A DNA stretch of 41,850 nt from an uncultured Clostridia bacterium (GTDB taxonomy: Bacteria > Bacillota > Clostridia > Christensenellales > UBA1242): assembly GCA_947629505.1 (NCBI GenBank), contig CANRDW010000004.1, positions 1-41,850 of the forward strand. Reading direction: 5' to 3'. The translations under genes were made by a program, and so were the position numbers. The notes under the pieces are model-generated. The model saw nothing but the letters and a program-made list of their open reading frames with translations. It searched no databases and was not told the origin of the DNA. Below are positions 1,683 to 37,988 of the stretch, in pieces. How positions within the stretch are numbered: the stretch's first letter is position 1; the number at the start of each line of letters is the position of its first letter.

Positions 1683-1961
1683 GTGGATGAAGTAAAAGAT
1701 GCGCTGATTAAAAGGGCTCTTGGCTTTGACAGTGACGAAATTGTGGAAGAATATGTGGCAGATGACAACGGAAAAACCGTGCTTTCAAAACGCAAAGTGA
1801 CAAAAAAATACAATCCGCCGGACATGAGTGCGCTTAAAGTTTTGATTGAGCAGTCTGAGTTTGATGATGAAATTTCGCACATGACGGACAAAGAACTTTT
1901 GCGCGAAAAAGACCGACTTTTAAAACTTTTAGCAGAAAAGGAGCAAGAAGATGAAAATTAA
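1683..1961 (+). CDS. Phage small-terminase-like protein (C-terminal part only), 92 aa
   Basis: GTG start after AGGAGG (1671-1676). The motif DALIKRALGF..EE...K..TKK..PPDMSA resembles the 'NALLKRALGY...TK.VPPD..A' segment of Firmicutes phage TerS/HTH proteins. First gene of the head operon. Confidence 0.55.
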   Translation: MDEVKDALIKRALGFDSDEIVEEYVADDNGKTVLSKRKVTKKYNPPDMSALKVLIEQSEFDDEISHMTDKELLREKDRLLKLLAEKEQEDEN

Positions 1962-2163
1962 AATGTGCAAAAACAGCGTAAGATGTGACCTTTACAAATG
2001 CAAAAACATGGCAAAGTATTCAATTACAACCAAAGGTTTTTTGAAACACGAATTTGTGTTTTGTGATGACTGCATGAAGAAAATGTTTGAATGCTTTTCA
2101 AAAGAGATGGTGCCAAAATCAATCAATGCGCCATACAAAAGACACTTTAAGGAGGAAAAATGA
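1951..2163 (+). CDS. Small Cys-rich putative zinc-binding protein
   Basis: AGGAG RBS, C-x4-C ... C-x2-C (CDLYKC...FCDDC), overlaps both neighbours. Confidence 0.65.
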   Translation: MKIKMCKNSVRCDLYKCKNMAKYSITTKGFLKHEFVFCDDCMKKMFECFSKEMVPKSINAPYKRHFKEEK

Positions 2164-4004
2164 AGAAATTAGATTTAGTTAAAGAAACTTTAGACGATTT
2201 TGAACAAAGGGTGAGAGAAAGAAAGCCCTTTGACAGCCAATGGCAAATGAACATGAATTTTTACATGGGAAATCAATATTGCGAACTTGGCTTTGGCGGC
2301 TTTGTGAGAGATATTGACAGGCAATATTTTTGGCAGGAAAGAGAAGTGTTCAATCACATTGCACCGCTCATCGACATAAGGCTTTCCAAACTTTCAAAAA
2401 TAAAGCCAAGATTTCAAATTTTGCCATCTTCAAACGATGACAACGACATTTACACTGCAAAAGTTGGAAAGAAAATTTTGGATTCAGTTTCAAGCAGACT
2501 TAACCTGACTGCAAAAATCAATCAGGCGACAAAATGGAGTGAAATTTGCGGAACATCTTTCTACAAGATAAGTTGGAATTCAAATCTTGGACAAGTTGTT
2601 GCGCTTGAGGATGACGGCAAAAAGGTGCACACGGGGGATGTTGAAATCAGTGTTTGCAGCCCGTTTGAAATCTATCCAGACAGTTCCACACATGAAAATT
2701 TGAGTGACTGCCAAAGCATAATCCATGCACGCGCTTACACTGTTGAACAAATCAAACAGATGTTTGGCGTGGATGTTAAGGGCAAGGACGTGAATGTCTA
2801 TTCGCTTGATGGCACATCGGCTGCACTTGGCGGACTTGGCTACAACGGGCTTTCAACAAAACTTATTGAAACAACTCGCCAAAACAGCGCCATTGTCCTG
2901 GAAAAATATGTTAAACCAAATGCGGAATTTCCAAACGGCAGGCTGATTATCATTGCCGGCGACACACTTGTTTTTGACGGAGATATGCCATACATCAACG
3001 ATGCAGAGGGCAAAAGAGAATTCCCGTTTGTGCGCCAAATCTGCAACGAAGAAGTTGGCAATTTCTGGGGCGTTTCAATGATTACAAGGCTGATTCCTAT
3101 TCAACGTGCATACAACGCAGTTAAAAACAGAAAGCATGAATATTTAAACAGGCTTACAATGGGCGTTTTGGCGGTTGAGGACGGCAGTGTTGACATCGAC
3201 AACCTTGAAGAAGAGGGTCTTGCACCGGGCAAAATTTTGGTTTACAGACAAGGTGCAACAGCGCCAGAATTTTTGGGCGGCGAAAGTTTGCCAGCCGATT
3301 TTGAAAAAGAAGAAGAAAGGCTTTTGGATGAATTTTCTGTTCTCAGTGGCTCAAACATCGGCACGCTTGAAAACATCAGGACAACCATGTCCGGCGTTGC
3401 CATCGAACTTTTGATGGACGAAAATGAAAGCAGACTTATCTTCACCACAGACAGCATTAAATCGGCGATTAAGACGATTGCAAAACAAATTTTAAGGCTG
3501 TATAAACAATTTGCAACATTCCCACGCCTTGTGAACATCATGGGTGATGACGGAGCGATGGAAATTTTGTATTTCACCGGCAGCGACATTTCAAGTGACG
3601 ATGTTCAATTTGACACTGACAACGAGTCAACTGAAACGCTCTCTCAAAGACGCAATATGATTTTCACACTGCTTGACAAAGGGCTTTTGTGTGACGATGA
3701 GGGCAAAATTTCAGCCAGCATGAAAAACAAAATCATGCAAAATCTTGGCTTTGGAATTTGGGACACCGCAGTGGATGTCAACGACCTTCACATCAAAAAT
3801 GCCGACAAAGAAAATTTGAAACTTGTGGATGGCAAAGAAGTTGCCGTCAAATCCATAGACGAACACTCACTGCATTTAAATCAACACATTGGCTATATGC
3901 TTAGAGTTGTCTATGGGCAAGACAAAGTTGACAAAAAAGCGGAAGAGGCGTTTTTAAAACACATTGAGGCGCACAAACAAGCGCTCGCTAAGGAGGAAAA
4001 ATAA
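2160..4004 (+). CDS. Phage portal protein (podovirus/P22-like, 614 aa)
   Basis: Size and position. N-terminal W..N..FY.GNQY, VFNHIAPLID.RLSKL, SPFEIYPD, FPFV....GNFWG.S....LIPIQRAYN and C-terminal D.H..H...H are typical of large podoviral portals. Confidence 0.8.
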   Translation: MKKLDLVKETLDDFEQRVRERKPFDSQWQMNMNFYMGNQYCELGFGGFVRDIDRQYFWQEREVFNHIAPLIDIRLSKLSKIKPRFQILPSSNDDNDIYTAKVGKKILDSVSSRLNLTAKINQATKWSEICGTSFYKISWNSNLGQVVALEDDGKKVHTGDVEISVCSPFEIYPDSSTHENLSDCQSIIHARAYTVEQIKQMFGVDVKGKDVNVYSLDGTSAALGGLGYNGLSTKLIETTRQNSAIVLEKYVKPNAEFPNGRLIIIAGDTLVFDGDMPYINDAEGKREFPFVRQICNEEVGNFWGVSMITRLIPIQRAYNAVKNRKHEYLNRLTMGVLAVEDGSVDIDNLEEEGLAPGKILVYRQGATAPEFLGGESLPADFEKEEERLLDEFSVLSGSNIGTLENIRTTMSGVAIELLMDENESRLIFTTDSIKSAIKTIAKQILRLYKQFATFPRLVNIMGDDGAMEILYFTGSDISSDDVQFDTDNESTETLSQRRNMIFTLLDKGLLCDDEGKISASMKNKIMQNLGFGIWDTAVDVNDLHIKNADKENLKLVDGKEVAVKSIDEHSLHLNQHIGYMLRVVYGQDKVDKKAEEAFLKHIEAHKQALAKEEK

Positions 4005-4005
4005 T

Positions 4006-4626
4006 ATGGATGAAATGGAAAATGTAGGGGAAGAACAACAAGTCGTTCAACCTTCAATCGAAGAAAACGAAAGTTGCTCCCCAAGTGAACAGGACAAGGA
4101 AGTTGTGACTGAAGGTGAAACTGAAAGGGGTGTTTTCCTTGGAAAATTTAAAAGTGTGGATGACCTTTACAGCGCATACAACAACCTTGAAGCCGAGTTT
4201 ACAAGAAAAAGTCAGCGCCTTTCTGAACTTGAGAAAGAGAAAACGCAAAATCAAGACAGCGATGCTGCCCTTCATGCGTTCCTTTCAAAAAACGAAAGTG
4301 CCGTGGGATACTTGGATGAACTAAAATCCCGTGTCACAGAAGAAAATGCTGACGAAAACGCTTTTGAAAAGGCTTGGGCGGGGATTTTATATGAAAAACT
4401 CTCTTCCAAAGACTTTGCAAAAGAGCCATTTGTTCAAAACATGGTTTTAAACGATGATGCCATTCAAAATATGGTTATCAAAAACTATTATAAACAACTT
4501 CAAAATCAAAAAGCACCTGTTGTGATTTCTTCAAACTCGGGTGAACGCGTGACCACGCCGGCTCAGACGCGTCCAACCTCTTTTGAAGAGGCAAAAAGGG
4601 TGGCAATGGAGTTGTTTAAAAATTAA
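4006..4626 (+). CDS. Capsid scaffolding/assembly protein
   Basis: AGGAGG RBS, acidic N-terminus, GKFKSVDDLYSAYNNLEAEFTRKSQ motif plus coiled coil, located between portal and capsid. Confidence 0.75.
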   Translation: MDEMENVGEEQQVVQPSIEENESCSPSEQDKEVVTEGETERGVFLGKFKSVDDLYSAYNNLEAEFTRKSQRLSELEKEKTQNQDSDAALHAFLSKNESAVGYLDELKSRVTEENADENAFEKAWAGILYEKLSSKDFAKEPFVQNMVLNDDAIQNMVIKNYYKQLQNQKAPVVISSNSGERVTTPAQTRPTSFEEAKRVAMELFKN

Positions 4627-4640
4627 AAAGGAGAAAAATT

Positions 4641-5810
4641 ATGATCACATTAAAAAGTGCAGAAAATGTACTAAAAGAAGTGTATTTAGGCGTTGTTGCT
4701 GACCAAATCAACACAAAAACAAGCCCACTTTTTTCTAAAATTAGAAGAACATCAAGAAACATCGTTGGAAAGAAAATTCACGTTGTTGCACCAATCGGCG
4801 TAAACGGCGGAATTATGGCAGGGGAAGAAACAAGCGTGCTTCCAGACGGAGTTGGCGCTCCATATCTTTCACTTACATCTGAACTTAAAAACCTTTTTGG
4901 AAGATTTGAAATCTCTGACAAGGCAATTCGCGCATCTTCAACTGATGTTGGCAGTTTTGTAAACTTGATTCAAGACAATATGGACACACTTTTGAAAGCA
5001 AGCATGTTCAATCTTTCAAGAATGCTCTATGGTGATGGAAGCGGCCTTTTGGCAACTGTCACAGATGCATCTGACAAGGTTGTTTTGTCATCTGTAAACG
5101 GCATTGCTCCAGGAATGTATGTTGATGTTTATGGCAGTGACGACAACATGAAAATTGAAAATGCATATGTTGAAAGCGTTGAGCCTGCCACAAAAGAAGT
5201 TAAACTTACATTCTCAAAAGAAGCTTCTGTTGCAGGCGAAGACAAAATCTATGTTCATGGCTCTAAGGACAACGAAATAATCGGGCTTAAAGGGATTGTT
5301 AAAAACAATGACACTCTCTACGGCGTTGACAGAAGCGTTTACAAAGTTATGAACGCAAACAACACAAGCGCTGTTGGAAGCGAAGCTTTTGACGAAGAGT
5401 ATGTTCAAAGTTTTATAGACGACCTTGAAGCAAAGGGGACTGTTGTAAACTTTATCAACACTTCATATGCGCTTAAAAGATTGTATCAAAAATATTTGAC
5501 TGTAAACAAGAAAAATATTGAATACACAACCTTAGAAGATGGCACAAAAGTTATCACTCATCTTGGAACACCAATCGTTCCAACAAATCAAATTGACGAT
5601 GGGGAATGCTATTTCCTCAACACCGATGATTTGGTTTTCTACGAACTTGGCGATTGGAAGTGGCTTGAAGATGAATGCGGCAGAATTTTAAAGCAAAATC
5701 CAAACAAGGCATCTTTTGGTGCAACTTTGGTTAAATACACCGAACTTATCTGCCAAAAGCCATCTGGAATTGCTCATGTGACAGGCATTAAAACAACATA
5801 CGGCGAATAA
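4641..5810 (+). CDS. Major capsid protein (HK97-fold expected)
   Basis: 389 aa directly after the scaffold, strong AAGGAG RBS. The segment LKNLFGRFEISDKAIRAS...SFVNLI...LSRMLYGDGSG and C-terminal YTELICQKPSG fit phage MCPs. Confidence 0.8.
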   Translation: MITLKSAENVLKEVYLGVVADQINTKTSPLFSKIRRTSRNIVGKKIHVVAPIGVNGGIMAGEETSVLPDGVGAPYLSLTSELKNLFGRFEISDKAIRASSTDVGSFVNLIQDNMDTLLKASMFNLSRMLYGDGSGLLATVTDASDKVVLSSVNGIAPGMYVDVYGSDDNMKIENAYVESVEPATKEVKLTFSKEASVAGEDKIYVHGSKDNEIIGLKGIVKNNDTLYGVDRSVYKVMNANNTSAVGSEAFDEEYVQSFIDDLEAKGTVVNFINTSYALKRLYQKYLTVNKKNIEYTTLEDGTKVITHLGTPIVPTNQIDDGECYFLNTDDLVFYELGDWKWLEDECGRILKQNPNKASFGATLVKYTELICQKPSGIAHVTGIKTTYGE

Positions 5811-5822
5811 AAGGGGCTTTTT

Positions 5823-6155
5823 ATGAAACAAAAGTTATTTGAAGTTGACAGCGACTGCTTGGAAATAGTGAGGCGAATTAAAGAAATTGATGACGATTAT
5901 TTTGTCATGTATGACAGCGAAAATCATAAATTTCAACTGCACTCAAGGTCGCAAAGAAACACATATTGTTTAACTTTTCCATATGATACTCTTGATGAAA
6001 GGGCTGTTTTGTATGTGCTGAAAACACGCGTGCAAAACAGTGACAAAATTTTTGCAGAACTTGAAGAAGAAAATCGCAAACTAGAAGAGAAGAAGTCAAA
6101 GGAAATTTTGAATAACTTTAAGGAGAAACTCTATGAAAGTTTTAGACATAATTAA
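5823..6155 (+). CDS. Phage-like hypothetical protein in the head operon
   Basis: Intact ORF with AAGGGG RBS, overlaps the next gene, C-terminal coiled coil. Confidence 0.7.
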   Translation: MKQKLFEVDSDCLEIVRRIKEIDDDYFVMYDSENHKFQLHSRSQRNTYCLTFPYDTLDERAVLYVLKTRVQNSDKIFAELEEENRKLEEKKSKEILNNFKEKLYESFRHN

Positions 6156-6687
6156 AATGGTTTGTGATTTTGTGGGAGAGAGTGAGATTTTTTCGAAACT
6201 CTCTTCAAAATCTTCGCTTACAAGCAAAGAGCAAGAGAAAGTTGACAGAATGCTTCGCTGTTTCAACCTTGTAAGACAGGAAATTGCTTGCGATTATCTT
6301 CCACTTTACACTAAAGAGAATGTTGACGCAAATGCGATTTTAAATTTCAGTTCGCTTTCAAAAAAGGTGATACATATCTTTGAAGTGAAAAACCGTTTTG
6401 GCATGAATTTGCATTTCAAAAATTTCGACAACTACATTGAAATTTCTGGCAGAGCAAAAAGCGTTTTATACTCTTATCTTCCAGAAGATTTGACGATAGA
6501 TGATGAAATTATCATGCACAGCGGACTCAGTGGAAGAATCTATGCTTATGGCGTGGCAAGTGAATATCTTTTGATTGACGGCGTGAGCGAGGATGCGGAA
6601 ATTTGGGAAAACAGATTTAAAGAGAGCCTGTTTGTTCTTTCCAGAAAACGTGGGGAACTTGTTTTACCTAAAAGGCGTTGGCTGTGA
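6133..6687 (+). CDS. Putative head-tail adaptor (P22 gp4 / T7 gp11-like)
   Basis: 184 aa, helical N- and C-termini around a beta-rich middle, YAYGVASEY....AEIWENRF end motif, position after the MCP. Confidence 0.55.
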   Translation: MKVLDIIKMVCDFVGESEIFSKLSSKSSLTSKEQEKVDRMLRCFNLVRQEIACDYLPLYTKENVDANAILNFSSLSKKVIHIFEVKNRFGMNLHFKNFDNYIEISGRAKSVLYSYLPEDLTIDDEIIMHSGLSGRIYAYGVASEYLLIDGVSEDAEIWENRFKESLFVLSRKRGELVLPKRRWL

Positions 6688-8183
6688 TTTTCTATAAAAA
6701 TCTCAAAAAAAATAAGCCGGTTTCTAGCAAAAATCTTGTTTTTTCTGTCTTTGATGGCGGAATTGTTTCAAACACCGATGACAGTGTTGCAAAACCAAAT
6801 GCATGCAAAACTTTTTACAATCTTTCATACATTGACGGGGCGCTTAAAACAGGGCTTGGGTTTTCGGATTTGGCAGTTCCTGCATCTGAGGACAACCTTG
6901 ATGACACTCACACCTATGATTTTGCTTCCAAAATAGATGAAATTTGTGGACTTTGGCTTGACAGGTGGTTTAACAATAATTCTGGGACATATCAGTATCA
7001 AATTATTTTAAGCGACACAAAAAATTATCTTTGGGGCGTTCCGCTCATCGACAGAAACAATGGCTTTATTTGGGACAAATCGGACAAACTTAAATCTCCG
7101 CCACTTTTTCAGTGTGCTTATCGAATTGATAACACAGACTGTTGTTTGTTTTTTGCAAATGAGGGGCTTTTATATCTCTCAACAGTCAGGGAGGGAATAT
7201 ATCCAAATGTTCCGCCGTTTATTTCTTGCGTTGTGCATTATGACAATTTTTTTGGAATTACAAACACAAACCGAAACACACTTATTTATACAACAAACTT
7301 AAACATAACCAAATGGCAAGAGGAAGAAAACCTTTCCACGATTGAATTTTTGGACAACCGTGGGGCTTTCACAAAACTTGTTGCGTTTAATGATTATGTA
7401 TATTTATTCAGAGAAAATGGCATAACAAAAATTTCACTTTACACCACAAGAGGTGAGTTTTCATTTACACATCTATACACGTCAACATCCAAAATTTTTG
7501 AAAATTCTGTGTGCGTGTGTGGGGGACAAGTGTTGTTTATGACACGTGATGGACTTTACACTTTCAATGGAAATTCTGTAAGCAAAGTTGCACAACAATA
7601 TGACAATTTTTTCAAAAAACTTGACAACTCAAATTGCACGTGTGCTTGCCTTGACGGAAAATATTATTTTGCAAGCAAATGCAACTTTGATGACGGAGAA
7701 AAAGTTGGTTGTGAAAATGGCGACTTTGTCAATAATTACCTTTTTGAAATTGACATTAAAACTTTTGAGTTGAATCTTTATCGCGGAGTTGACATCAGAA
7801 AATTGCTTGCCTTGGACAACCCTTACATGAGCAAAATGTGTGCTTGTTTTTACAATGAAAATAAGCAGCGTGTTGGGCAGTTGAATTTTGATGGCTCAAC
7901 CTTTGAAAAGGCAACACAAAAATGTTGGAAGTCTTTTTCAACTGACTTGGATTTTCCGGGCAAACGCAAAAGAATAAAAGAAATTTACATCACATCTTTG
8001 TATGATTGTGAAATGACAATAATTTCAGATGAAGAAGAAAAATCATATAAATTTGTTGGAAAAAGTGAAATTCAACGTGAAAAAATCAACATTTGTGGCA
8101 AAAGCTTTCAATTTATTTTAAAATCGACAGAAAAAAATTGCGACATAAAAAAGCCGATGGTGACGTTTGATGTTAAAGAATAA
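6678..8183 (+). CDS. Putative tail hub/nozzle beta-propeller protein (P22 gp10 / T7 gp12-like)
   Basis: Starts F.GGI..., repeated blade-like strands (LVAFNDYVYLFRENGI, VLFMTRDGLYTFNG, DGKYYF), C-terminal W.S..TDLDFPGKRKRIKEI. Confidence 0.6.
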   Translation: MAVIFYKNLKKNKPVSSKNLVFSVFDGGIVSNTDDSVAKPNACKTFYNLSYIDGALKTGLGFSDLAVPASEDNLDDTHTYDFASKIDEICGLWLDRWFNNNSGTYQYQIILSDTKNYLWGVPLIDRNNGFIWDKSDKLKSPPLFQCAYRIDNTDCCLFFANEGLLYLSTVREGIYPNVPPFISCVVHYDNFFGITNTNRNTLIYTTNLNITKWQEEENLSTIEFLDNRGAFTKLVAFNDYVYLFRENGITKISLYTTRGEFSFTHLYTSTSKIFENSVCVCGGQVLFMTRDGLYTFNGNSVSKVAQQYDNFFKKLDNSNCTCACLDGKYYFASKCNFDDGEKVGCENGDFVNNYLFEIDIKTFELNLYRGVDIRKLLALDNPYMSKMCACFYNENKQRVGQLNFDGSTFEKATQKCWKSFSTDLDFPGKRKRIKEIYITSLYDCEMTIISDEEEKSYKFVGKSEIQREKINICGKSFQFILKSTEKNCDIKKPMVTFDVKE

Positions 8184-8284
8184 TTTTGTTTTTTACAATT
8201 CCACTAAACTTTTTGTTTGGAAATCTTTTGAAATTTTAGGCGACTTTAATGCCTATAAAAAATGCATTTTTAAAGGATGAAAAA

Positions 8285-8503
8285 ATGGAAATTTGGGAGG
8301 AAATTATCAGCATCATCATCAGCAATGGAGTGTTTGCAATTTTGTTTGTTTGCCTTTTTGTTTATCAACTTAAAGACAGCAGGCGCAGAGAAGAAAAGTA
8401 TCAACAAACGATTGAGGAACTCACGGTTGGATTGCAAGTTTTGCAAGATGTAAGAGAAGATGTTGATGAAATAAAAGATATTTTGGAGAGTGAAAAACTA
8501 TGA
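8285..8503 (+). CDS. BhlA/UviB-family holin-like peptide
   Basis: SNGVFAILFVCLFVYQLKDSRRREEKYQQTIEEL matches the BhlA/UviB pattern (single TM then REEKYQ). Confidence 0.8.
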   Translation: MEIWEEIISIIISNGVFAILFVCLFVYQLKDSRRREEKYQQTIEELTVGLQVLQDVREDVDEIKDILESEKL

Positions 8504-8757
8504 AAAATTTTTTCAAAAAATTTAAAAGTTATGGCTTTTGGGTGAGTTTATCTGCGGCAGTGATTGTGCTTTTAAACGCACTTGGCAGAGCCTTTGGGTT
8601 TTCAATAGATGAGAAGATTGTTGACGATGTTGTCATGTCACTTGCAAGCCTTTTGGTTGTGCTTGGAATTGTGGATATGTCAACCAACAAAGACTCTCAT
8701 GATGACGATTCAGACGAAGATGACAACTTGCCAAATGATGATAAAAATAATGAATAA
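8500..8757 (+). CDS. Two-TM phage holin-like protein
   Basis: K.KSYGFWVSL..A TM1, second TM ending LVVLGIV, acidic tail. Confidence 0.7.
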   Translation: MKNFFKKFKSYGFWVSLSAAVIVLLNALGRAFGFSIDEKIVDDVVMSLASLLVVLGIVDMSTNKDSHDDDSDEDDNLPNDDKNNE

Positions 8758-8794
8758 ATAAACAATATAATGTATAAATATACACACAAAAAAC

Positions 8795-8828
8795 AAAGTC
8801 GAGTCAATTTTTAGACTCGGCTTTTTTA
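8795..8828 (+). terminator. Rho-independent terminator closing the phage-like operon
   Basis: AAAGTCGAGTC-aattttta-GACTCGGCTTT followed by a T tract. Confidence 0.8.
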
Positions 8829-8901
8829 TTTTAGAAAATTTTGTTGGCGAATTGCTTGTAAATATTATTTATTTATGATAAAATCTTTATATGGAGGAGT
8901 T

Positions 8902-9252
8902 ATGAAAAAAGTTTTATACACGATTTTGTCAATTTTGTCGATAATATATATTGGCTTTATGTGCGTGGATGTTATTCGCAGAGCAAATCCACAGTTTCTT
9001 GCGGACATGGGCTGGTTTACAAAAATTTATGAGTGCATCGTAAGTTTTGGCGGCATTGCAATCATCTTCTGTTTTGCTCTTGTCAATTTTGCGGGAAGCC
9101 CGCTTAAAACGGTGTTCTTCATTTTGCTTATTGTTGCAATCATCTGCTTTATAATCGTTTCAATTGTTCCAGATTTCTTTTACAATCTTTTTGGTGGAAA
9201 GGCAACAACAGAGGGCGCTGTGAATGCAGCAAGAGTTTTCCTTAAAATGTAA
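8902..9252 (+). CDS. Hypothetical membrane protein (3 TM)
   Basis: GGAGGAG RBS before ATG 8902, three hydrophobic segments, 9 bp before polA. Confidence 0.75.
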   Translation: MKKVLYTILSILSIIYIGFMCVDVIRRANPQFLADMGWFTKIYECIVSFGGIAIIFCFALVNFAGSPLKTVFFILLIVAIICFIIVSIVPDFFYNLFGGKATTEGAVNAARVFLKM

Positions 9253-9261
9253 GGGTGATTT

Positions 9262-11754
9262 GTGAAGAAAATTATTGTTGTTGATGGAAATAGTTTGGCA
9301 AATAGGGCATTCTACGCAATGCCTTATTTATCTAATAGGCAAAAAGAGCCTTCTGGAGCGGTTTTTGGGTTTGCAAATTTGCTTGTAAAACTTATTTCAA
9401 CCACGAGGCCAGACTATATTGCCGTTGCTTTCGACCACGCTCGAAAGACTTTCAGAAATGAAATTTATGCCGATTATAAGGCAAAACGAAAGGAAACTCC
9501 GCCGGATCTTGTTGCACAATTTCCTGTTATTAAAAAAATGTTGGATGTTATGGGCATCAAAATTTTTGAAAAAGCGGGGATTGAAGCGGACGACATTATT
9601 GGCACGATTTCAAGAAACAGCGGCATTGAAAACATCCTTGTTTCTGGGGACAGGGATCTGTTGCAACTTATAAATGACACAACTTCTGTGTGGCTTACAA
9701 GAAAGGGCGTGACTGAAACAGAACTTTTCGACAAAAACAATCTTCAAGAGAAATTTGGTGTGACTGCACAGGGCGTGGTGGAACTTAAAGCGCTCATGGG
9801 CGACCAAAGTGACAATATTCCCGGGATTGCCGGCGTTGGCGAGAAAACGGCATTGTCTTTGATTCAGGAATACGGATCTTTGGATGTGGTGTATGAAAAT
9901 ATATCCAAAATTTCTGGAAAACTGCAAGAAAAACTTTCAAATGGCAAGAATGACGCCTATATGTCAAAACAACTTGCCACAATCAAAACCGATTGTGAAA
10001 TTGGCTTTGATTTAAAGGATTGTGAATATGTCTATCCGTTTTCGCAAGAAGTGAGAGATTTCTTCGATGATTGGGATTTTCGAAGTCTTGTTTCAAGACA
10101 GGATATTTTTGGGCAATATGTCAAAGAAAAGTCAGAAACTGTGAAAATCTGCCTTGAAAACAAACAGGCGTTGTTGTCCTTTAAAGAAAAAATCAAAGAT
10201 GTGCTGTGTTATAACCTTGAAAATATGGAATTTTCAACAAAAGACGGCGAAAATTATTTTATTCAAAAAGAGATAAATTTGTTTTCAAACACGCTTGATT
10301 TGAAAGATGTTTTATTGGAATTTAAAGATGTTTTTGAGGATAAAAACATTTTGAAAATCACAAATTCTTCTAAACAAGATATAAAAATTTTAAAGGATTT
10401 AAACATTCAGTTAAACAACTTTTTTGACCTTGAAATAGCAAGATATGTGCTGTTTGCAGGCTTGCCAAAAGCCCCACTTTTGAAAGTTGAAGAATTTGTG
10501 AAAAACAAAGATATTCTTTTGAAGCAAATGCACGATGAAGGTGTTTTTGAAATTTACAATGAAATTGAAATTCCGCTTGTGAAAATTCTTGCGGATATGG
10601 AAGAAGAGGGCTTTAAAATCAATGAATCTGAATTGGATGTTTTGCAGCAGAAATATGACAGCGAACTTTCCTCTTTGTCGCAGCAAATCTATGCGCTTGC
10701 GGGCGAAACTTTCAATATAAACTCGCCAAAACAGGTTGCAAACATTTTGTTTGACAAACTTGGATTGAAAAGTTTTAACAACAAAAAACAATCCACAAAT
10801 TTTGCTGTTTTGGATGAGATGAGGTGGCAGCATGAGATTGTTGAACTTATCATCTCACACAGAAAACTTTCCAAACTTGTCAGCACTTATATAAATGTTT
10901 ACAAGCGAATTTGTGACGCGAGTGGCCCTGTTGTGCACACTGTTTTCAATCAAACTCTCACTTCAACGGGCAGGCTTTCAAGCAGTGAGCCAAACATGCA
11001 AAACATTCCAACGCGAAATGAAGAGGGGCGCAACCTTCGAAAAATCTTCATTTCAAAATATGATGACGGTCGAATAATCTCGGCGGACTACAATCAAATT
11101 GAACTGAGGCTTCTTGCCAATATGGCACAGGAAGAGAGTATGATTGATGCTTATAAGCATGGCGTGGATATTCACACAAAAACTGCGAGTGAAATTTTTG
11201 GCGTGCCGGTTGAAAAAGTGACAGCAGAGCAGCGCCGCGATGCAAAAGCGGTCAATTTTGGCATAATTTATGGAATTTCCGATTTTGGACTTTCTCAAAA
11301 CATTAAATCAAGCAGAAACAAGGCAAAAAACTATATTGAAAACTATTTCAATCGTTATCCAAAAATCAAAGTGTTTATGGACAAAAATGTCAATTTTGCA
11401 AAGGAGCATGGGTTTGTGCGCTCTTATTTTGGCAGAATTAGGCATATTCCAGAAATCAAAGCATCAAATGTCATGGTCAGAAAGTTTGGAGAGCGCGTTG
11501 CCATGAACATGCCACTTCAAGGCACGGCATCTGATATCATCAAAAAGGCGATGGTGGAGGTTGGAAAGCGTCTTGAGGGCATGGATAGTCATGTTATTTT
11601 GCAAATTCATGACGAACTTATTGTCGATTGTCCGCGTGACGAAGTTGAAAAAGTTGAGCGCATTTTAAAAGAATGCATGGAAAATGTTTGCAGTTTTGAA
11701 GTGCCACTGACTGTGTCTGTAAGCAGCGGCAAAAATCTTTTTGAATGTAAATAA
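9262..11754 (+). CDS. polA: DNA polymerase I
   Basis: 5'-3' exonuclease (VDGNSL, EADDIIG, GDRDLLQL), TGRLSS.EPNMQNIP, motif A ADYNQIELR, motif B KAVNFGIIYG, motif C QIHDEL. Confidence 0.97.
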   Translation: MKKIIVVDGNSLANRAFYAMPYLSNRQKEPSGAVFGFANLLVKLISTTRPDYIAVAFDHARKTFRNEIYADYKAKRKETPPDLVAQFPVIKKMLDVMGIKIFEKAGIEADDIIGTISRNSGIENILVSGDRDLLQLINDTTSVWLTRKGVTETELFDKNNLQEKFGVTAQGVVELKALMGDQSDNIPGIAGVGEKTALSLIQEYGSLDVVYENISKISGKLQEKLSNGKNDAYMSKQLATIKTDCEIGFDLKDCEYVYPFSQEVRDFFDDWDFRSLVSRQDIFGQYVKEKSETVKICLENKQALLSFKEKIKDVLCYNLENMEFSTKDGENYFIQKEINLFSNTLDLKDVLLEFKDVFEDKNILKITNSSKQDIKILKDLNIQLNNFFDLEIARYVLFAGLPKAPLLKVEEFVKNKDILLKQMHDEGVFEIYNEIEIPLVKILADMEEEGFKINESELDVLQQKYDSELSSLSQQIYALAGETFNINSPKQVANILFDKLGLKSFNNKKQSTNFAVLDEMRWQHEIVELIISHRKLSKLVSTYINVYKRICDASGPVVHTVFNQTLTSTGRLSSSEPNMQNIPTRNEEGRNLRKIFISKYDDGRIISADYNQIELRLLANMAQEESMIDAYKHGVDIHTKTASEIFGVPVEKVTAEQRRDAKAVNFGIIYGISDFGLSQNIKSSRNKAKNYIENYFNRYPKIKVFMDKNVNFAKEHGFVRSYFGRIRHIPEIKASNVMVRKFGERVAMNMPLQGTASDIIKKAMVEVGKRLEGMDSHVILQIHDELIVDCPRDEVEKVERILKECMENVCSFEVPLTVSVSSGKNLFECK

Positions 11755-26859: not shown

Positions 26860-28020
26860 ATGAAAAAAGGCAGAATTTTCTTAGTTTCTTTTTTGATTGT
26901 CTTTGCACTTGCACTTTCCCTCACAATGCCGCTTTGTGAGATTTTTTCGCTTGAAAACGGCTTTTTGGCGGGCTATGACGATGTTCAGGTGGCAAATTCG
27001 ACCAACAGATTTGGGCTTTTCATAAAAACTCAACTCGAAGAAAAAGAAAGTCAGGTTTCCGGCGAAAAGGTTAAGCAAAATGAGGTTGTTTTCAAACTTT
27101 TTGGCTTTATTCCCATTCGCAAAGTGGATGTCAAACTTTGCACAGATGAGGTGTATTATGTGGGTGGCGTTCCAATCGGACTTGACATAATTTCACGCGG
27201 AGCAATCGTCATTTCAAGTGACAACACCGCCTTAAAAGAGGGGGATATCATAACAAAAATCAATGGGCAAGAAGTTGAAAACTTGCAGCAGATTGAGGGC
27301 TTTTTGGAAATTCAGCCCGAAGAGGCAGAAGTGGAGTATCTTCGCAAAAACAAGCCGACAAAGACCATTTTAAAAACCACACGAGATGAATTTGGGAAAC
27401 TTAAACTTGGACTTTGGGTGAAGGACGACATTGCCGGCGTTGGAACACTCACTTTTGTCAATAAAGACAGCAAAAAATACTCCGCTCTTGGACATCCCAT
27501 TGTTGAAAGCGCAAGTGGGAACATTGTGCCTGTTTCAAGCGGCGATATCTATGAATGTAATTTGATTGGCATAAACAAAGGGAAACGCAACAATCCCGGC
27601 GAACTTAAATGTATTTTCATGCCGGGCGCTCAAAGCAAGGGCACAATCGACAACAACTGCAAATTTGGTATAAACGGCGTGCTTAATGACACAAGTTTTG
27701 TGGATGAAAATGTGACTGCACACTTGGGTGGCAGGCTGGGTGTTGTTATGGGCGATGCAAAGATTGTTTCAAGCATAAGCGGCATAAGAGAAGAATATGA
27801 CATTGAGATTATCAAAACAAACTATCAAAAACATGCGGATGACAAGAGCATTGTGTTTCGCGTGAAAGACAAACGGCTTTTAAATCTTACGGGTGGCATT
27901 GTGCAGGGGATGAGCGGCTCACCAATCATGCAAAACGGCAAAATAATCGGTGCAGTCACGCACGTGTTTTTGTCAGACCCGACGAAGGGATATGGAGTTT
28001 ACACGGATTGGATGCTTTAA
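26860..28020 (+). CDS. spoIVB: SpoIVB serine peptidase (S55) with PDZ domain
   Basis: GLWVKD..AGVGTLTF, ALGHPI, TGGIVQGMSGSPIMQNGKIIGAVTHV. Confidence 0.95.
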   Translation: MKKGRIFLVSFLIVFALALSLTMPLCEIFSLENGFLAGYDDVQVANSTNRFGLFIKTQLEEKESQVSGEKVKQNEVVFKLFGFIPIRKVDVKLCTDEVYYVGGVPIGLDIISRGAIVISSDNTALKEGDIITKINGQEVENLQQIEGFLEIQPEEAEVEYLRKNKPTKTILKTTRDEFGKLKLGLWVKDDIAGVGTLTFVNKDSKKYSALGHPIVESASGNIVPVSSGDIYECNLIGINKGKRNNPGELKCIFMPGAQSKGTIDNNCKFGINGVLNDTSFVDENVTAHLGGRLGVVMGDAKIVSSISGIREEYDIEIIKTNYQKHADDKSIVFRVKDKRLLNLTGGIVQGMSGSPIMQNGKIIGAVTHVFLSDPTKGYGVYTDWML

Positions 28021-29057
28021 TCCGCTTCAAAAATCTTAACTTTTCCGGCAACGGCCTTTCGCATATCTTCGTTGATTGCGGCGTAATGGCGTTTTGTGGT
28101 GTTGACATCTTTGTGGCCTAAAACATCGGCGACAATATAAATATCTTTTGTTTCTCTGTATAAATTTGTGCCAAAAGTGGAGCGCAGTTTGTGCGGAGAA
28201 ATCTTTTTGAGCGGACTGCCTTCTCTTGCAAACTTTTTGACAAGATTTTCCACTGCGCGCACGCAAATACGCTTGTTTTGAAGGGATACAAACATGGCAT
28301 GCTCATTAGGGTCTAATTTCAAAGTTTCGCGTTTTGCAAGCCATGTGTTTAAGGCATCGCGCACTTCATATGAAAAATACAAGATCGCTTGATTGCCACC
28401 TTTCCTTGTCACTTTAAAAGCGTTTTGCGAGAAATCAAAATCTTCAACATTCAGACCAACAAGTTCGGAGATACGAATGCCCGTGCCAAGAAAAAGCGTG
28501 ACGATGGCGTTGTCGCGGGCGGTGGTGTTTTGATTGTAGTGTTTTTGGCGTTCTGTGAAAGTTTTTGGACTAGATACTGCGTTGAGCATTCTTGTCACTT
28601 CGTCTTTTTCCAGGCGAATAATCTCTTTATTGTGCAGTTTTGGAGTTTGTATTTTGCTTGCAACATTGCTTGAAATCATGTCATGATTGAAAAGATATTT
28701 GAAAAAACTACGAATGGAGGCAAGTTTTCTCGCTTTGCCGCGTTCGGTGTTTTTCTGATATTTGTCGCCACACTCATAATAGGAGATGTAGGACAAAAAG
28801 TTTTCAATGTTTCTTGCTTGAAGAGAGTCCAAATCCTCAAGTGTGATTTGCATTTTTGGTTTTTTCAAAACATACTTTTCAAGATAGTCGAAAAACACTG
28901 TCAAATCCATGGCATAGTTGACGCGTGTTAGCGAAGAAGTGTTGTTTTCAATTCCTGTGAAAAAATCATAGCAAAATTCTGGAAGCTGTGACAAATAACT
29001 TCCGACTTTTTGCATATTTTTAAGGTCGCGTTTTTCATAGAAAGAAAGCGTTTTCAT
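28017..29057 (-). CDS. xerC: Chromosomal tyrosine recombinase, XerC-like
   Basis: RKLASIRSFFKYL, GTGIRISELVGL, SPHKLRSTF, LGH..VNTT..HY catalytic set. Confidence 0.8.
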   Translation of the reverse strand: MKTLSFYEKRDLKNMQKVGSYLSQLPEFCYDFFTGIENNTSSLTRVNYAMDLTVFFDYLEKYVLKKPKMQITLEDLDSLQARNIENFLSYISYYECGDKYQKNTERGKARKLASIRSFFKYLFNHDMISSNVASKIQTPKLHNKEIIRLEKDEVTRMLNAVSSPKTFTERQKHYNQNTTARDNAIVTLFLGTGIRISELVGLNVEDFDFSQNAFKVTRKGGNQAILYFSYEVRDALNTWLAKRETLKLDPNEHAMFVSLQNKRICVRAVENLVKKFAREGSPLKKISPHKLRSTFGTNLYRETKDIYIVADVLGHKDVNTTKRHYAAINEDMRKAVAGKVKIFEAD

Positions 29058-29907: not shown

Positions 29908-29978
29908 AGCATAATTTTTGACACAAATTTTTTAAATATACATTTGACAAAAGGGAGGTTTTTTGCTAAAATTTAAGT

Positions 29979-34722: not shown

Positions 34723-35625
34723 ATGCTGGAAAAAATCCTGCCAGAGAAGTTTTACAATATTATCGCAAGCAAAATCAATCTAAAAGCCGTCAATGAAATA
34801 AGGCTCAGATGCGACAGGCCGGTTGTCATCAATGTCAGCGGCAAAAATTTTTTTCTTTGTGAAAACGGCGTGACAACATCGCGTGCAAACGCCTTGATTG
34901 CAAGCAAAATTATGATTGAAGATGTGATTTTCAGGGCGAGTGAGTGTTCAATTTATTCGGTGAATGAGCAGATTAAACGGGGATTTATTGTCACTGATGA
35001 TGCTGTGAGAATTGGAATTGGCGGAAATCTTGTGGAGGAAAACGGCAAAATCAAAACTATGTCAAATTTCACTTCTTGCAACATTCGTGTGCCACATTTT
35101 GTGAAGAATTGTTCGCTTTGTGCATTTCCATACATCGTTTCAAATGATGGAGTCCAAAACACGCTTGTAATTTCTCCGCCCGGCTGTGGCAAGACCACTT
35201 TTTTAAAGGATTTTGTCAGTCAACTAAGTCAGCGCAATTTGGCATACAATGTGCTTTTACTTGACGAGCGTGGCGAACTTGACATTGGCATAAATTCGTC
35301 TTACACCGACAAGATTGCTTTTTCAAGCAAAAAAGTGGGCTTTGAAAACGGCATTCGTTCGCTTTCACCAGACATCATCGTCACGGACGAAGTGGGGCAA
35401 GAGGATGATGTGGATGCAATAAGATATGCCTGCACTTGCGGAGTGAAAATTTTGGCGTCTGCACACGCCGAAAGCGTTGAAACTTTCTGCAAAAAGCCAC
35501 TTTTCCAAGAGGTGATTAAAGAGAAGTTGTTTAAACGCTTTGTTGTGCTTTCAAAACGCAACGGCCCAGGCACTTTTGAGGGAATTTATGATGAGAATTT
35601 TGCGCGGATTTATCACTCAACTTAA
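34723..35625 (+). CDS. spoIIIAA: Stage III sporulation ATPase AA
   Basis: EIRLR..RP, SPPGCGKTT.LKD, DERGEL, IRSLSPD..VTDEVG, first gene of the 8-gene operon. Confidence 0.92.
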   Translation: MLEKILPEKFYNIIASKINLKAVNEIRLRCDRPVVINVSGKNFFLCENGVTTSRANALIASKIMIEDVIFRASECSIYSVNEQIKRGFIVTDDAVRIGIGGNLVEENGKIKTMSNFTSCNIRVPHFVKNCSLCAFPYIVSNDGVQNTLVISPPGCGKTTFLKDFVSQLSQRNLAYNVLLLDERGELDIGINSSYTDKIAFSSKKVGFENGIRSLSPDIIVTDEVGQEDDVDAIRYACTCGVKILASAHAESVETFCKKPLFQEVIKEKLFKRFVVLSKRNGPGTFEGIYDENFARIYHST

Positions 35626-35634
35626 GGAGGGTGC

Positions 35635-36129
35635 ATGAAATATATTTTTATTGTTTTATTGTTTGGAGTTTGCGTTGTTGTGGGCTATGTTATGTCACTT
35701 AAATACGCCAAACGCAAAAAGTTTTTCACAAGCCTTATCACAGTGGCGGACAAACTTTGCATGGAGATAAATTTCTCACGCGAAAGGCTTAGAGTTTTGT
35801 TTGCAAATTTGGACGAAAATTTGAAAAAACATCTTCTTGGAGTGGACGAGCAGTTTGTCAGATTTTTGGACAGAGAATGCGAACTCGTGGAGAGCGAAAT
35901 CTTTAAAAAAGCGGACTGTTTAAAAGCGGATGAAAAAGAAGCAATTTTGATGTTTTTTAAGATGCTTGGCAGAAGCGATGTTGAAAATCAGACGAAAGAA
36001 ATTTCTTCTTATGTGAGCAGATTTGGCGAGTTTAAAAAAACTTGTGATGAAGAACACAAAAAATATGGCTCTCTTTCAATCAAACTTGGCTTTATTTGTG
36101 GGCTTTTTGTGGCGGTCATTCTGTTTTAA
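35635..36129 (+). CDS. spoIIIAB: Stage III sporulation protein AB
   Basis: N- and C-terminal TMs, LGRSDVENQ, operon position. Confidence 0.85.
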   Translation: MKYIFIVLLFGVCVVVGYVMSLKYAKRKKFFTSLITVADKLCMEINFSRERLRVLFANLDENLKKHLLGVDEQFVRFLDRECELVESEIFKKADCLKADEKEAILMFFKMLGRSDVENQTKEISSYVSRFGEFKKTCDEEHKKYGSLSIKLGFICGLFVAVILF

Positions 36130-36135
36130 AAGGAG

Positions 36136-36336
36136 ATGCAGATGGATGTTGATATTATCTTCAAAATCGCCGCAATAGGCATCTTGACAGCCGTTGTCAG
36201 CCAAATTCTGAAAAACAGCGGCAAGGACGACATCTCCACTTTGGCAACTTTGGCGGGAGTTGTGATTGTGCTGTTTATGGTTGTTGGCATGATCGGGGAG
36301 TTGTTTACAAACATAAGAACGATATTTAGTTTTTAA
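36136..36336 (+). CDS. spoIIIAC: Stage III sporulation protein AC
   Basis: MDVDIIFKIAAIGILTAV...TLAG. Confidence 0.92.
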   Translation: MQMDVDIIFKIAAIGILTAVVSQILKNSGKDDISTLATLAGVVIVLFMVVGMIGELFTNIRTIFSF

Positions 36337-36345
36337 AAGGCGCAT

Positions 36346-36738
36346 ATGGACACACTTTTCAAAATTATCAGTGTTGCACTTATCACTTGTGTGGCTTGCA
36401 TGGTTGTCAAACCTGTGCGGGCTGATTTTGCCGTGTTGTTGTCCATTGTGGGCGGAATAATAATCATTCTTTACATGCTTTCTTATTTTTCAGATATCTT
36501 CAAAATCTTTGACAGCATCTTTCATTTTTCGGGCATAAATTCGTCTATTTACAGCGTTGTTTTGAAGATAATCGGCGTGGGCTATCTGACGGAGTTTGCT
36601 TCTAGCGTTTGCAGTGACACGGGCAATTCTTCGCTTGCGGACAAGGTTTTGCTTGGTGGCAAAATTGTGATTTTGGTCATGTCCCTTCCTATTGTGACCA
36701 GCATCCTTGATATTGTCATGCAACTTTTGCCAAAGTGA
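36346..36738 (+). CDS. spoIIIAD: Stage III sporulation protein AD
   Basis: LKIIGVGYLTEF...C.D.G..SLA.KV.LGGK. Confidence 0.92.
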   Translation: MDTLFKIISVALITCVACMVVKPVRADFAVLLSIVGGIIIILYMLSYFSDIFKIFDSIFHFSGINSSIYSVVLKIIGVGYLTEFASSVCSDTGNSSLADKVLLGGKIVILVMSLPIVTSILDIVMQLLPK

Positions 36739-37988
36739 CAAGAAAAATGTTGAGCCTGACAAAAAGGAAGGGGATTGTCAAGGTTTTTGTTTTAATGATT
36801 GTGCTGTGCATCTTTGTTTCTTGTTTTTTTGGGCGATTTGGCATATCGGGCTTTGAGGTGAATGTTGCATATGCGGCAACTGTCCAAGAGGATGATACAC
36901 AAAAAGCGCTTGAAGAGGAAGTTGAAAAACAACTCGACAATTTGGACTTTACAGCACTTGAAGATGTCATTTCAAAACTGTCAGTTTCGGCAAAAGAGAT
37001 TTTTGCGTCAAATTCGTTTATGGACAAACTCAAACTTGTCATCTCGGGCGACTATGCGGAAAATTCAAAGTCTTTTCTCGCGGCAGTCAGTTCGATTTTT
37101 TGGGACGGCATGAAAACCTTTATGCCAATCATCGCAAGCATAATTGCAATATCCATTTTGGGCGGCATGATTTCTTCATTAAAGCCGACAAGTTCTGGAA
37201 AGTCCATCGGCGGAATTGTTCACTTTGTCACTTATGGGATTGTGATTGTCTTTTTGGGAGCGACACTTGTGCAACTTATGCAAACCACAACTCAAACGCT
37301 CACAACAATCAAAAGTGTTTTTGACGGCATCTTTCCGCTTTTGTTGACATTATTGACCGCTATTGGCGGTTCTGTTTCTGTAGGGATTTATCAGCCTGCA
37401 ATCGCACTTATTTCAAATGTCATAATCTCTTTTATCACGCATATTCTGTTGCCTATTTTCATCTTTTCGCTTGTGTTTTCAATCATCGGCAATCTTTCAA
37501 ACAATGTCCGTCTTGACAAATTCGTGTCCTTTTTGCAGTCCACTTTCAAATGGACAATCGGCTTTTGTTTCACCATCTTTCTGGGCTTTATTTCAATTCA
37601 GGGCATCATGGCTGGCAGCGTTGACGGGCTTTCCATCCGCACAGCAAAATATGCCATAAAAAGTTATGTGCCGGTGGTGGGCGGCTATGTTGCAGACGGC
37701 ATGGGCATCATCCTTGCAAGCAGCACACTCATCAAAAACGCTGTCGGTGGCGTTGGGCTTTTCCTTTTGCTTGCAAGCGTGATTTCACCTGTTTTGCAAC
37801 TTGTTTTGTTTATGCTTTCGCTGAAGTTTATGGCGGGCGTGATTGAGCCTATTGGCGACAGCAAAGTTGCCTCGTTTATCAGCGATGTTTCAAAAAGCAT
37901 GTCGCTTTTGATTGCGCTTATTGTAGCGGTGTCGTTTATGTATTTGGTGCTGACCGGACTTATCATGTGCAGCGCAAATCTTGTTTAG
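36735..37988 (+). CDS. spoIIIAE: Stage III sporulation protein AE
   Basis: Polytopic, DG...RTAKY....VPVVG, IKNAVG..G. Confidence 0.92.
   Translation: MTRKMLSLTKRKGIVKVFVLMIVLCIFVSCFFGRFGISGFEVNVAYAATVQEDDTQKALEEEVEKQLDNLDFTALEDVISKLSVSAKEIFASNSFMDKLKLVISGDYAENSKSFLAAVSSIFWDGMKTFMPIIASIIAISILGGMISSLKPTSSGKSIGGIVHFVTYGIVIVFLGATLVQLMQTTTQTLTTIKSVFDGIFPLLLTLLTAIGGSVSVGIYQPAIALISNVIISFITHILLPIFIFSLVFSIIGNLSNNVRLDKFVSFLQSTFKWTIGFCFTIFLGFISIQGIMAGSVDGLSIRTAKYAIKSYVPVVGGYVADGMGIILASSTLIKNAVGGVGLFLLLASVISPVLQLVLFMLSLKFMAGVIEPIGDSKVASFISDVSKSMSLLIALIVAVSFMYLVLTGLIMCSANLV

Follow-up and report, generated by a model that had tools for sequence, protein, structure and literature searches.

A domesticated podovirus-type capsid operon in the Christensenellales, probably a gene transfer agent-like system

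Few gene transfer agents (GTAs) have known gene sets, and a single podovirus-like example is in print. That example, FpGTA of Faecalibacterium, was described as the first podovirus-like GTA-like element (Nat Commun 2026; PMC12946183, here and below in the parts of its text that were available). The same source reports GTA-like packaging for metagenome-assembled genomes of Christensenellaceae, with no genes assigned to it in the available text. Here we analyze a podovirus-type capsid operon in an uncultured bacterium of the order Christensenellales. Whereas FpGTA particles were demonstrated by electron microscopy, proteomics, and DNA sizing (PMC12946183), the present system is known from its genes alone. 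It lies in what we call the window, the whole 41,850-bp contig C4 (CANRDW010000004.1) of a 991-kb genome (43 contigs, 85.8% complete). We conclude that the operon is probably the structural and lysis half of an anciently domesticated podovirus-type phage, maintained by its host and most likely GTA-like.

The host belongs to family UBA1242, to which Caccovivens has been assigned within the Christensenellales (PMC8035907, available in part). UBA1242 genomes have been described as smaller than 1 Mb, with most biosynthesis lost and sporulation genes retained (PMC12306168, available in part). We found no description of this cluster in the literature on Christensenellales or UBA1242. In the available text of PMC12306168 and PMC13155120 the words "phage" and "capsid" do not occur, nor does "gene transfer" in the former or "terminase" in the latter. 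An earlier reading of this DNA from its letters (the sequence-only reading) held that no system of such architecture had been characterized in the group, a statement overtaken by the publication of FpGTA and by the packaging seen for Christensenellaceae (PMC12946183).

The operon consists of ten intact open reading frames (ORFs), all on the + strand, that span positions 1683-8757 of the window. In order, they code for a TerS-like protein, a zinc ribbon, a P22-type portal, a candidate scaffold, the major capsid protein (MCP), a conserved protein (o110), an adaptor (o184), a nozzle (o501), and two holins. Overlaps join TerS to the zinc ribbon (11 nt), the zinc ribbon to the portal (4 nt), o110 to the adaptor (23 nt), the adaptor to the nozzle (10 nt), and the first holin to the second (4 nt); the remaining intergenic gaps within the operon measure 12-65 nt. 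An intrinsic terminator (8795-8834, + strand) closes the unit, with a stem-loop at 8795-8824 (11-pair stem, 5 G-C pairs, 8-nt loop) followed by the T run TTTATTTT. On the left lie a divergent ABC-transporter ATPase gene, which starts 125 bp before the TerS GTG (1683), and the gene for its permease. On the right lie a small membrane protein gene, polA, ruvX, and pheST. No att-like direct repeats were found flanking the operon, and no integrase, repressor, or replication gene is among its neighbors. The sequence-only reading had described the locus in just these terms, from the coupled ORFs and their terminator to the ABC ATPase on one side, the membrane gene and polA on the other, and the missing phage functions; the description is confirmed, with all ten ORFs where it put them. 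A XerC/D-type tyrosine recombinase with an N-terminal SAM-like domain is encoded 19 kb from the operon (28017-29057, - strand), with no evident link to it.

The portal (614 aa, 2160-4004) matches PF16510 (P22_portal, E 6.5e-24) and phrog_156 (E 1.9e-36), and its identity across the genus is 52-76%. The MCP (389 aa, 4641-5810) matches phrog_14242 (E 3e-47). In the nearest ESM Atlas clusters, 29-37% of the members bear SU10_MCP. The closest GenBank phage proteins reach 24.5-27% identity at best, and a protein homologue search returned 5402 close relatives, which are named at most "phage major capsid protein" and provided no link to FpGTA. For the adaptor and the nozzle, AlphaFold2 models were built from alignments of relatives and compared with known structures by Foldseek. 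The adaptor (184 aa, 6133-6687), for which a PDB sequence-profile search found no match, was modeled with a local confidence (pLDDT) of 90.2 and a predicted template modeling score (pTM) of 0.81. Its model drew 17 PDB matches at E up to 0.001 (TM 0.4-0.66); the listed ones are all phage portal-tail or connector chains, including the PhiM1 "portal and adaptor" complex, KP32 tail tubular protein A, and T7. The nozzle, of the beta-propeller type (501 aa, 6678-8183; pLDDT 88.6, pTM 0.88), has podovirus tail nozzles as its best PDB folds, with Pa223 first (E 9e-22, TM 0.72) and VP1, GP4, SU10, P22, and T7 gp12 following. By sequence it matches the virion structural protein family phrog_3287 (E 1e-6), and the PDB profile search gave only a weak match to an SU10 tail protein (E 0.0014). 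These family matches and predicted folds bear out the portal, capsid, adaptor, and nozzle identities that had been proposed from the letters. The operon ends with a BhlA-family holin (84 aa, 8249-8503; PF10960 Holin_BhlA, E 6.5e-16; phrog_2429, E 1.5e-16) and a second holin (85 aa, 8500-8757; PF04531 Phage_holin_1, E 5.8e-5, 24 bits at a cutoff of 22; phrog_297 holin, E 8.1e-10).

The first gene, with a GTG start and the ribosome-binding site AGGAGG at 1671-1676, encodes the short TerS-like protein (92 aa, 1683-1961). Its match to phrog_309 is weak (E 2.6e-4, profile positions 197-239 of 319), and the same family is matched by 15 of 19 TerS-like sequences, the window's and 14 of its 18 aligned homologues, at a best E of 2.1e-7. 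The match covers the central or C-terminal part of the profile, and an N-terminal DNA-binding domain is not evident. The homologues, of ~75-95 aa, begin where the window's GTG at 1683 does, and a sequence-profile search of PDB gave no significant match. So short a TerS parallels the small terminases of GTAs. The putative zinc-ribbon-like protein (70 aa, 1951-2163) has no match in Pfam or PHROG, and its C12, C17, C38, and C41 are invariant in 24/24 aligned homologues, two of them from other families. The candidate scaffold (~206 aa, 4006-4626), named for its position between portal and MCP, has no family match in Pfam or PHROGs, and its identity across the genus is 30-53%. We chose ATG 4006 as its start over TTG 3964; early stops in 2 of 28 homologue high-scoring segment pairs (HSPs) suggest a downstream start. 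Finally, o110 (110 aa, 5823-6155) is retained in the clusters of different families (29 HSPs from 31 loci), with nothing found for it in Pfam, PHROGs, the PDB profile search, or the Atlas (best Atlas score 0.75).

Within the genus, the MCP gene is single-copy and stop-free in all 24 sampled species, whose genomes measure 0.7-1.3 Mb, and in all 15 of a second draw. The ten-gene order is colinear across this sample. The same divergent ABC ATPase adjoins the operon in 20 of the 24 loci, these being the ones whose fetched stretch extends that far, and the membrane gene and polA lie downstream in five species fetched from the window's subclade and in one other. HSPs with a stop number 0/25 for TerS, 0/24 for the zinc ribbon, 0/31 for the portal, 0/31 for the MCP, 0/28 for the adaptor, 0/27 for the nozzle, and 0/23 and 0/24 for the two holins. 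For o110 (7/29) and the scaffold (2/28), stops occur at HSP ends only, where the query ends are offset, and no internal stop was seen in 31 loci. Compared with a relative of 95% MCP identity, the ratio of nonsynonymous to synonymous change (dN/dS) is 0.093 for the scaffold, 0.051 for the MCP, 0.058 for o110, 0.069 for the adaptor, 0.127 for the nozzle, and 0.121 for the second holin, at unsaturated dS values of 0.26-0.64 for the operon genes. In the same comparison, the housekeeping neighbors polA and ruvX stand at 0.080 and 0.073. Because it is colinear beside the same ABC transporter, free of internal stops, and held at the dN/dS of polA, the operon is not a decaying prophage. The sequence-only reading had proposed a host-maintained, vertically inherited module, and the shared position in 24/24 species, the dN/dS of 0.05-0.13, and a conserved promoter uphold that part of it. 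Within the genus, the window and seven relatives (L013-L019, eight species in all) sit on a long stem of the MCP tree, at 1.13 changes per site. Since the MCP, portal, and ABC ATPase of this subclade are all much closer to one another than to the rest of the genus, we take the stem to mark a deep split within it.

The large terminase gene, terL, had been taken as absent, with the suggestion that an orphan copy be sought elsewhere. It is indeed present, at an unlinked and conserved locus. With relatives' TerL proteins as queries we located it in the window's own genome at C41:2-382 and C32:9002-9964, broken by an assembly gap and on contigs other than that of the operon. Its absence from a PF03354 (TerL_ATPase) search of this genome was a false negative of that family. 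The protein belongs to the Terminase_6N/6C family; in other families of the order it has 475 aa and is encoded directly upstream of TerS. In a close relative (G871, 95% MCP identity) the gene is whole and intact, and it is single-copy in 96 of 100 species of the genus and in 71 of 72 genomes of high quality. Among the genomes that carry both loci on a single contig, the distance between them is 35-147 kb in 11 and ~6 kb in one more. Against the close relative, dN/dS is 0.000 over the first 127 codons of terL and 0.018 over the remaining 321, the lowest of the genes measured. The assembly break in the window's genome spans ~75 bp, and in another genome of the genus (G001) terL likewise lies in two pieces at the ends of contigs, interrupted at almost the same codon. 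Differences between strains, or an insertion carried by only some of the population, could account for such breaks.

The content of the terL locus is conserved: a 180-aa activator-like protein (dN/dS 0.047), a divergent membrane-anchored SH3 protein (0.133), terL, and a surface protein of 760-830 aa (0.253 at 70% identity). The 180-aa protein has matches among phage families of transcription activators and sigma factors (phrog_36, E 2.7e-7; phrog_248, E 3.5e-7), and its homologues adjoin the cluster in other families. The surface protein (p830, 830 aa; C32:6427-8919, locus L049) follows terL directly in the own genome, in G871, and in the eight terL loci of the genus that were fetched whole. 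It evolves far faster than its neighbors, with 70% identity where terL has 98-100%, and 21-35% across the genus. In an IMG/VR locus (L078), TerL and TerS are separated by a homologue of this protein. We considered p830 as a tail fiber and rejected it, as its signal peptide and C-terminal membrane anchor indicate a cell surface protein and no virion part.

Beyond the genus, an MCP profile matched 195 of 401 genomes of the host order, with a single match in nearly all of them. In some families almost every genome has the gene (20/20, 20/21, 17/20, 10/11, 6/6), and in others it was not found (0/21, 0/21, 0/20, 0/20, 0/20). At least 580 matched stretches of the species-genome collection encode a relative of the MCP. 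We fetched 60 loci, from 17 families of the order and from one family of another order (f90), and 51 of them have terL immediately upstream in the same orientation. In at least 16 other families of the order the same genes form a contiguous ~12-kb cluster. Its usual order is activator, SH3-type membrane protein (on the opposite strand), TerL, TerS, zinc ribbon, portal, scaffold, MCP, o110, adaptor, nozzle, 0-3 variable ORFs, DUF7934, and holins. In many loci of other families, the immediate neighbors of the cluster are genes that have homologues in the window's genome. Within the window's family, the four remaining genera keep the cluster contiguous and lack DUF7934 (0/4, vs 38/60 loci overall); in the window's genus terL is, in addition, separated from TerS. 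The comparison thus documents stages in the breakup of a domesticated element, from one cluster in most families, through loss of distal genes in the window's family, to the separation of terL in its genus. One locus of the same family but another genus (L202, in G281) carries tandem MCP genes, at C2:8035-9204 and 9219-10367.

The MCP tree (92 rows) groups by host family. It requires 23 label changes, where the minimum is 20 and shuffled labels average 64.3, a value as low being reached in 0 of 200 shuffles, and the window's genus forms one group. This supports the vertical inheritance proposed in the sequence-only reading. Among 400 Clostridia genomes outside the order, MCP matches are sporadic (2/13, 1/9; 0/13 to 0/17 in the largest families), with f90 as one further lineage. 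There, all eight matching genomes, of one genus, have a strong single MCP match. The four fetched loci (L257-L260) hold scaffold, MCP, o110, and two ORFs of ~177 and ~596 aa together, with portal and terL not adjacent, and their MCPs fall inside Christensenellales diversity on a long stem. This lineage may represent a transfer between orders followed by further breakup.

Upstream of TerS lies a conserved promoter region (1597-1661, + strand). It comprises a T-rich TGTG box at ~1597-1605, a TTTTTGACAC box at 1617-1626, a -35-like TTGATT at 1633-1638, a 17-nt spacer, and a -10-like GAAAAT at 1656-1661. The architecture aligns in 20 of 21 upstream regions from species of the genus, although their proteins are only 45-65% identical. 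In genus-wide form it reads, over the 125-190 bp that precede TerS, as a TGTGAC-like box, a TTTTTGGCAC box, a TTG -35, a 17- to 18-nt spacer, a TATAAT-like -10, and a conserved leader. When a weight matrix was trained with the window left out, the window's site came first among ~2 million positions of its own genome (25.3, vs 21.8 for the next). From its letters, the promoter looks sigma-A-like with upstream boxes. We rejected a sigma-54 promoter, because the TGGCAC-N-TTG box is one base too long and a TATAAT-like -10 follows the TTG by 17-18 nt; rpoN was not searched for. Nor do we claim a regulon, since the runner-up sites of the matrix, such as the one at 29909 in front of rsfS, resemble common promoters. 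Nine loci have a TTTTTGTC box before terL, which is no more than suggestive. Between the -10 and the start codon, the TerS upstream regions (L013-L036) share a leader motif close to CAAAGTTGCAAAGGAG, kept in most species of the genus and weaker in the window.

What might such a gene set do? It provides for capsid assembly, packaging, portal closure, and membrane lysis, and for neither replication nor lysogeny, which points to a DNA-packaging particle kept by the host. The structural genes are chromosomally fixed, vertically inherited, and under selection, as expected of a GTA. They have no module for replication, integration, or lysogeny, and the genes are unable to travel in a single particle. 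As to release by lysis, two holins end the operon and neither locus holds an endolysin; two Amidase_3 genes lie elsewhere in the genome, with no link to the operon seen. In the mechanism that we envisage, the operon and terL would be switched on by a signal, perhaps relayed by the 180-aa activator and the conserved boxes that precede the promoter. Portal, scaffold, and MCP would then build procapsids, which TerL and the very short TerS, with no evident DNA-binding domain, would fill by a headful mechanism, probably with host DNA of no particular sequence. Adaptor and nozzle would close the portal, the two holins would open the membrane, and host autolysins would complete lysis and release the particles.

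The sequence-only reading had placed a GTA beside a capsid repurposed as a compartment, possibly linked to sporulation. Its host-maintained, inherited module is supported by our analysis, and the other two ideas are not. A terminase under very strong constraint, together with portal, adaptor, and nozzle, argues for DNA packaging and against a compartment. A link to sporulation finds no support in a promoter of sigma-A-like appearance or in the distance of 26 kb to the sporulation genes of the window. The latter, at 34723-37988, include spoIIIAA (PF19568, E 4e-61) and spoIIIAE (PF09546, E 2e-66), and their presence in a genome of ~1 Mb agrees with the available text of PMC12306168.

Several points weigh against a GTA-like system. 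Particle formation, packaging, release, and transfer are all predictions from gene content. The assignment of TerS is weak, as is that of the scaffold, which is based on position only. Four of the 100 genomes of the genus have no terL match, and two terL matches contain one in-frame TAA. Prophages that diverged along with their hosts could also produce a tree in which MCPs group by host family. Among the sequencing runs listed, no RNA or virome run contains the window sequence; four DNA runs of one rabbit-gut sample contain its words at 0.60-0.71, and five others contain small shares. Finally, neither the operon nor the terL locus yielded a tail fiber or receptor-binding protein, an ejection protein, or an endolysin, which weakens the transfer step in particular. 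Likewise, a search of the own genome, at its 85.8% completeness, for distal genes known from other families (DUF7934 and 26 variable ORFs) was without success. DUF7934 gave tblastn E values above 0.3 and one subthreshold family match of 15.7 bits. Compared with PHROGs, 9 of 10 variable distal ORFs of other families had no match, and one weakly matched a family without an assigned function.

These gaps lend some weight to the alternative that the particle is domesticated but selected for something other than transfer, its capsid and terminase still working. It could serve programmed lysis that releases DNA or nutrients, form a PBSX-like particle that does not deliver, or act as an antiphage decoy. 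Two holins within the operon would suit such a role, as would the missing fiber and ejection genes and the loss, in the window's family, of distal genes kept elsewhere between nozzle and holins (DUF7934, 0/4 vs 38/60). Moreover, the authors of FpGTA leave a PBSX-like role without delivery possible in the available text (PMC12946183). However, no gene measured is under stronger constraint than terL (dN/dS at most 0.02), and adaptor and nozzle are kept, which fits DNA in a closed head better than lysis alone. ComEC and DprA are also kept, so that DNA uptake is possible, but these are common genes. We therefore regard a role without transfer as unlikely, though serious enough to be kept in view.

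A mobile satellite, such as a phage-inducible chromosomal island (PICI) or capsid-forming PICI, or a live temperate podovirus with its other genes nearby, is highly improbable. In its favor, IMG/VR lists as viral 66 related contigs, found with the MCP alignment where a single MCP sequence matched none, and related matches appear sporadically in other Clostridia families (2/13, 1/9). A few long contigs (e.g., L101, L111, and L117) have many extra ORFs around related capsid genes and may be real phages. At the present locus, however, there is no integrase, att repeat, or replication gene; the operon is single-copy, sits beside the same host genes, and follows host families in its inheritance. 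Its genes are moreover split over two loci, 35-147 kb apart in relatives. The marks of PICIs and capsid-forming PICIs (integrase, att sites, a replication module, helper dependence) were not found at the locus, whose position is fixed across the genus. As for a complete functional P22- or SU10-like prophage, there are only the ten genes and the terL locus, with host genes adjoining on both sides. That the operon is a functionless cryptic prophage remnant, not yet eroded, is scarcely credible: the lack of replication, lysogeny, fiber, and endolysin genes would fit, but the operon occupies the same locus in 24/24 species whose proteins differ by 35-55%, has no internal stops, a dN/dS equal to that of polA, and a conserved promoter, and belongs to a gene set kept in 0.7- to 1.3-Mb genomes that shed most biosynthesis (PMC12306168, in the part available).

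If the operon is GTA-like, as we favor, its distribution invites a broader and more tentative proposal. There may be one ancient GTA lineage, with a single domestication that predates the divergence of at least 16 Christensenellales families, and it may have persisted even in the obligately partner-dependent genomes of under 1 Mb in the window's family, where it could be the main route of recombination. Such a lineage might also be the basis of the Christensenellaceae GTA-like packaging in human fecal particles. In the window's family, which has lost the distal tail genes, DNA would then enter by another route, for example through ComEC and DprA of the recipient. We consider this larger scenario possible, and rather less than an even prospect.

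The narrower finding already has consequences. It supplies a concrete, widely conserved gene set for an abundant uncultured gut order and makes the published observation of Christensenellaceae packaging directly testable. Virion genes amount to ~11 kb, ~1% of the genome, and are as constrained as housekeeping genes. Synthesis of amino acids, nucleotides, and lipids has been lost from the host genomes (PMC12306168, in the part available). The retention of constrained virion genes in genomes so reduced argues for a real benefit, possibly recombination in small, bottlenecked populations.

Comparison with known systems places the operon among domesticated particles with a podoviral body plan. With P22-, SU10-, and Pa223-like podoviruses it shares a P22-type portal, an MCP near SU10_MCP clusters, adaptor and nozzle folds, and a scaffold in place of a protease. 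Unlike them, it comes with no replication, lysogeny, fiber or spike, needle, ejection-protein, or endolysin genes, and its best GenBank phage MCP identity is 27%. PBSX of Bacillus is likewise a host-retained, nonreplicating, phage-derived particle that packages host DNA and is released by lysis (PMC12946183, in the available text). In contrast to the present system, which has no sheath, tube, or baseplate genes, PBSX has a contractile tail and occupies one large contiguous prophage-like region. RcGTA of the Alphaproteobacteria (summarized in part in PMC12946183) is similar in its vertically inherited head and packaging cluster, purifying selection, unlinked further genes, truncated TerS, and release by lysis. 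It differs in its siphovirus-like long tail, in its protease and tail tube genes, and in regulation by host CtrA and quorum sensing, whereas the window's system has a short tail with adaptor and nozzle, a scaffold without a protease, and a phage-type activator beside terL.

FpGTA is the closest in kind. The two have hosts of different orders and differ in gene order. FpGTA, as described in the available text of PMC12946183, runs TerS-TerL-portal-scaffold-MCP-tail parts, whereas the ancestral order here is TerL-TerS-zinc ribbon-portal, with TerL and TerS unlinked in the genus. Its second locus carries baseplate, fiber, receptor-binding protein, holin, and endolysin genes, whereas here the holins close the capsid operon, and fiber and endolysin were not found. 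In other respects, judged by the same text, the likeness is broad. Neither system has replication genes, and both are divided between two loci, which for FpGTA lie 125 kb apart in one strain. Both include a TerS without an evident DNA-binding domain, along with TerL, portal, scaffold, MCP, tail parts, and lysis genes. Overall, each is a chromosomal, near-ubiquitous set of short-tailed-phage genes in a lineage of gut Clostridia.

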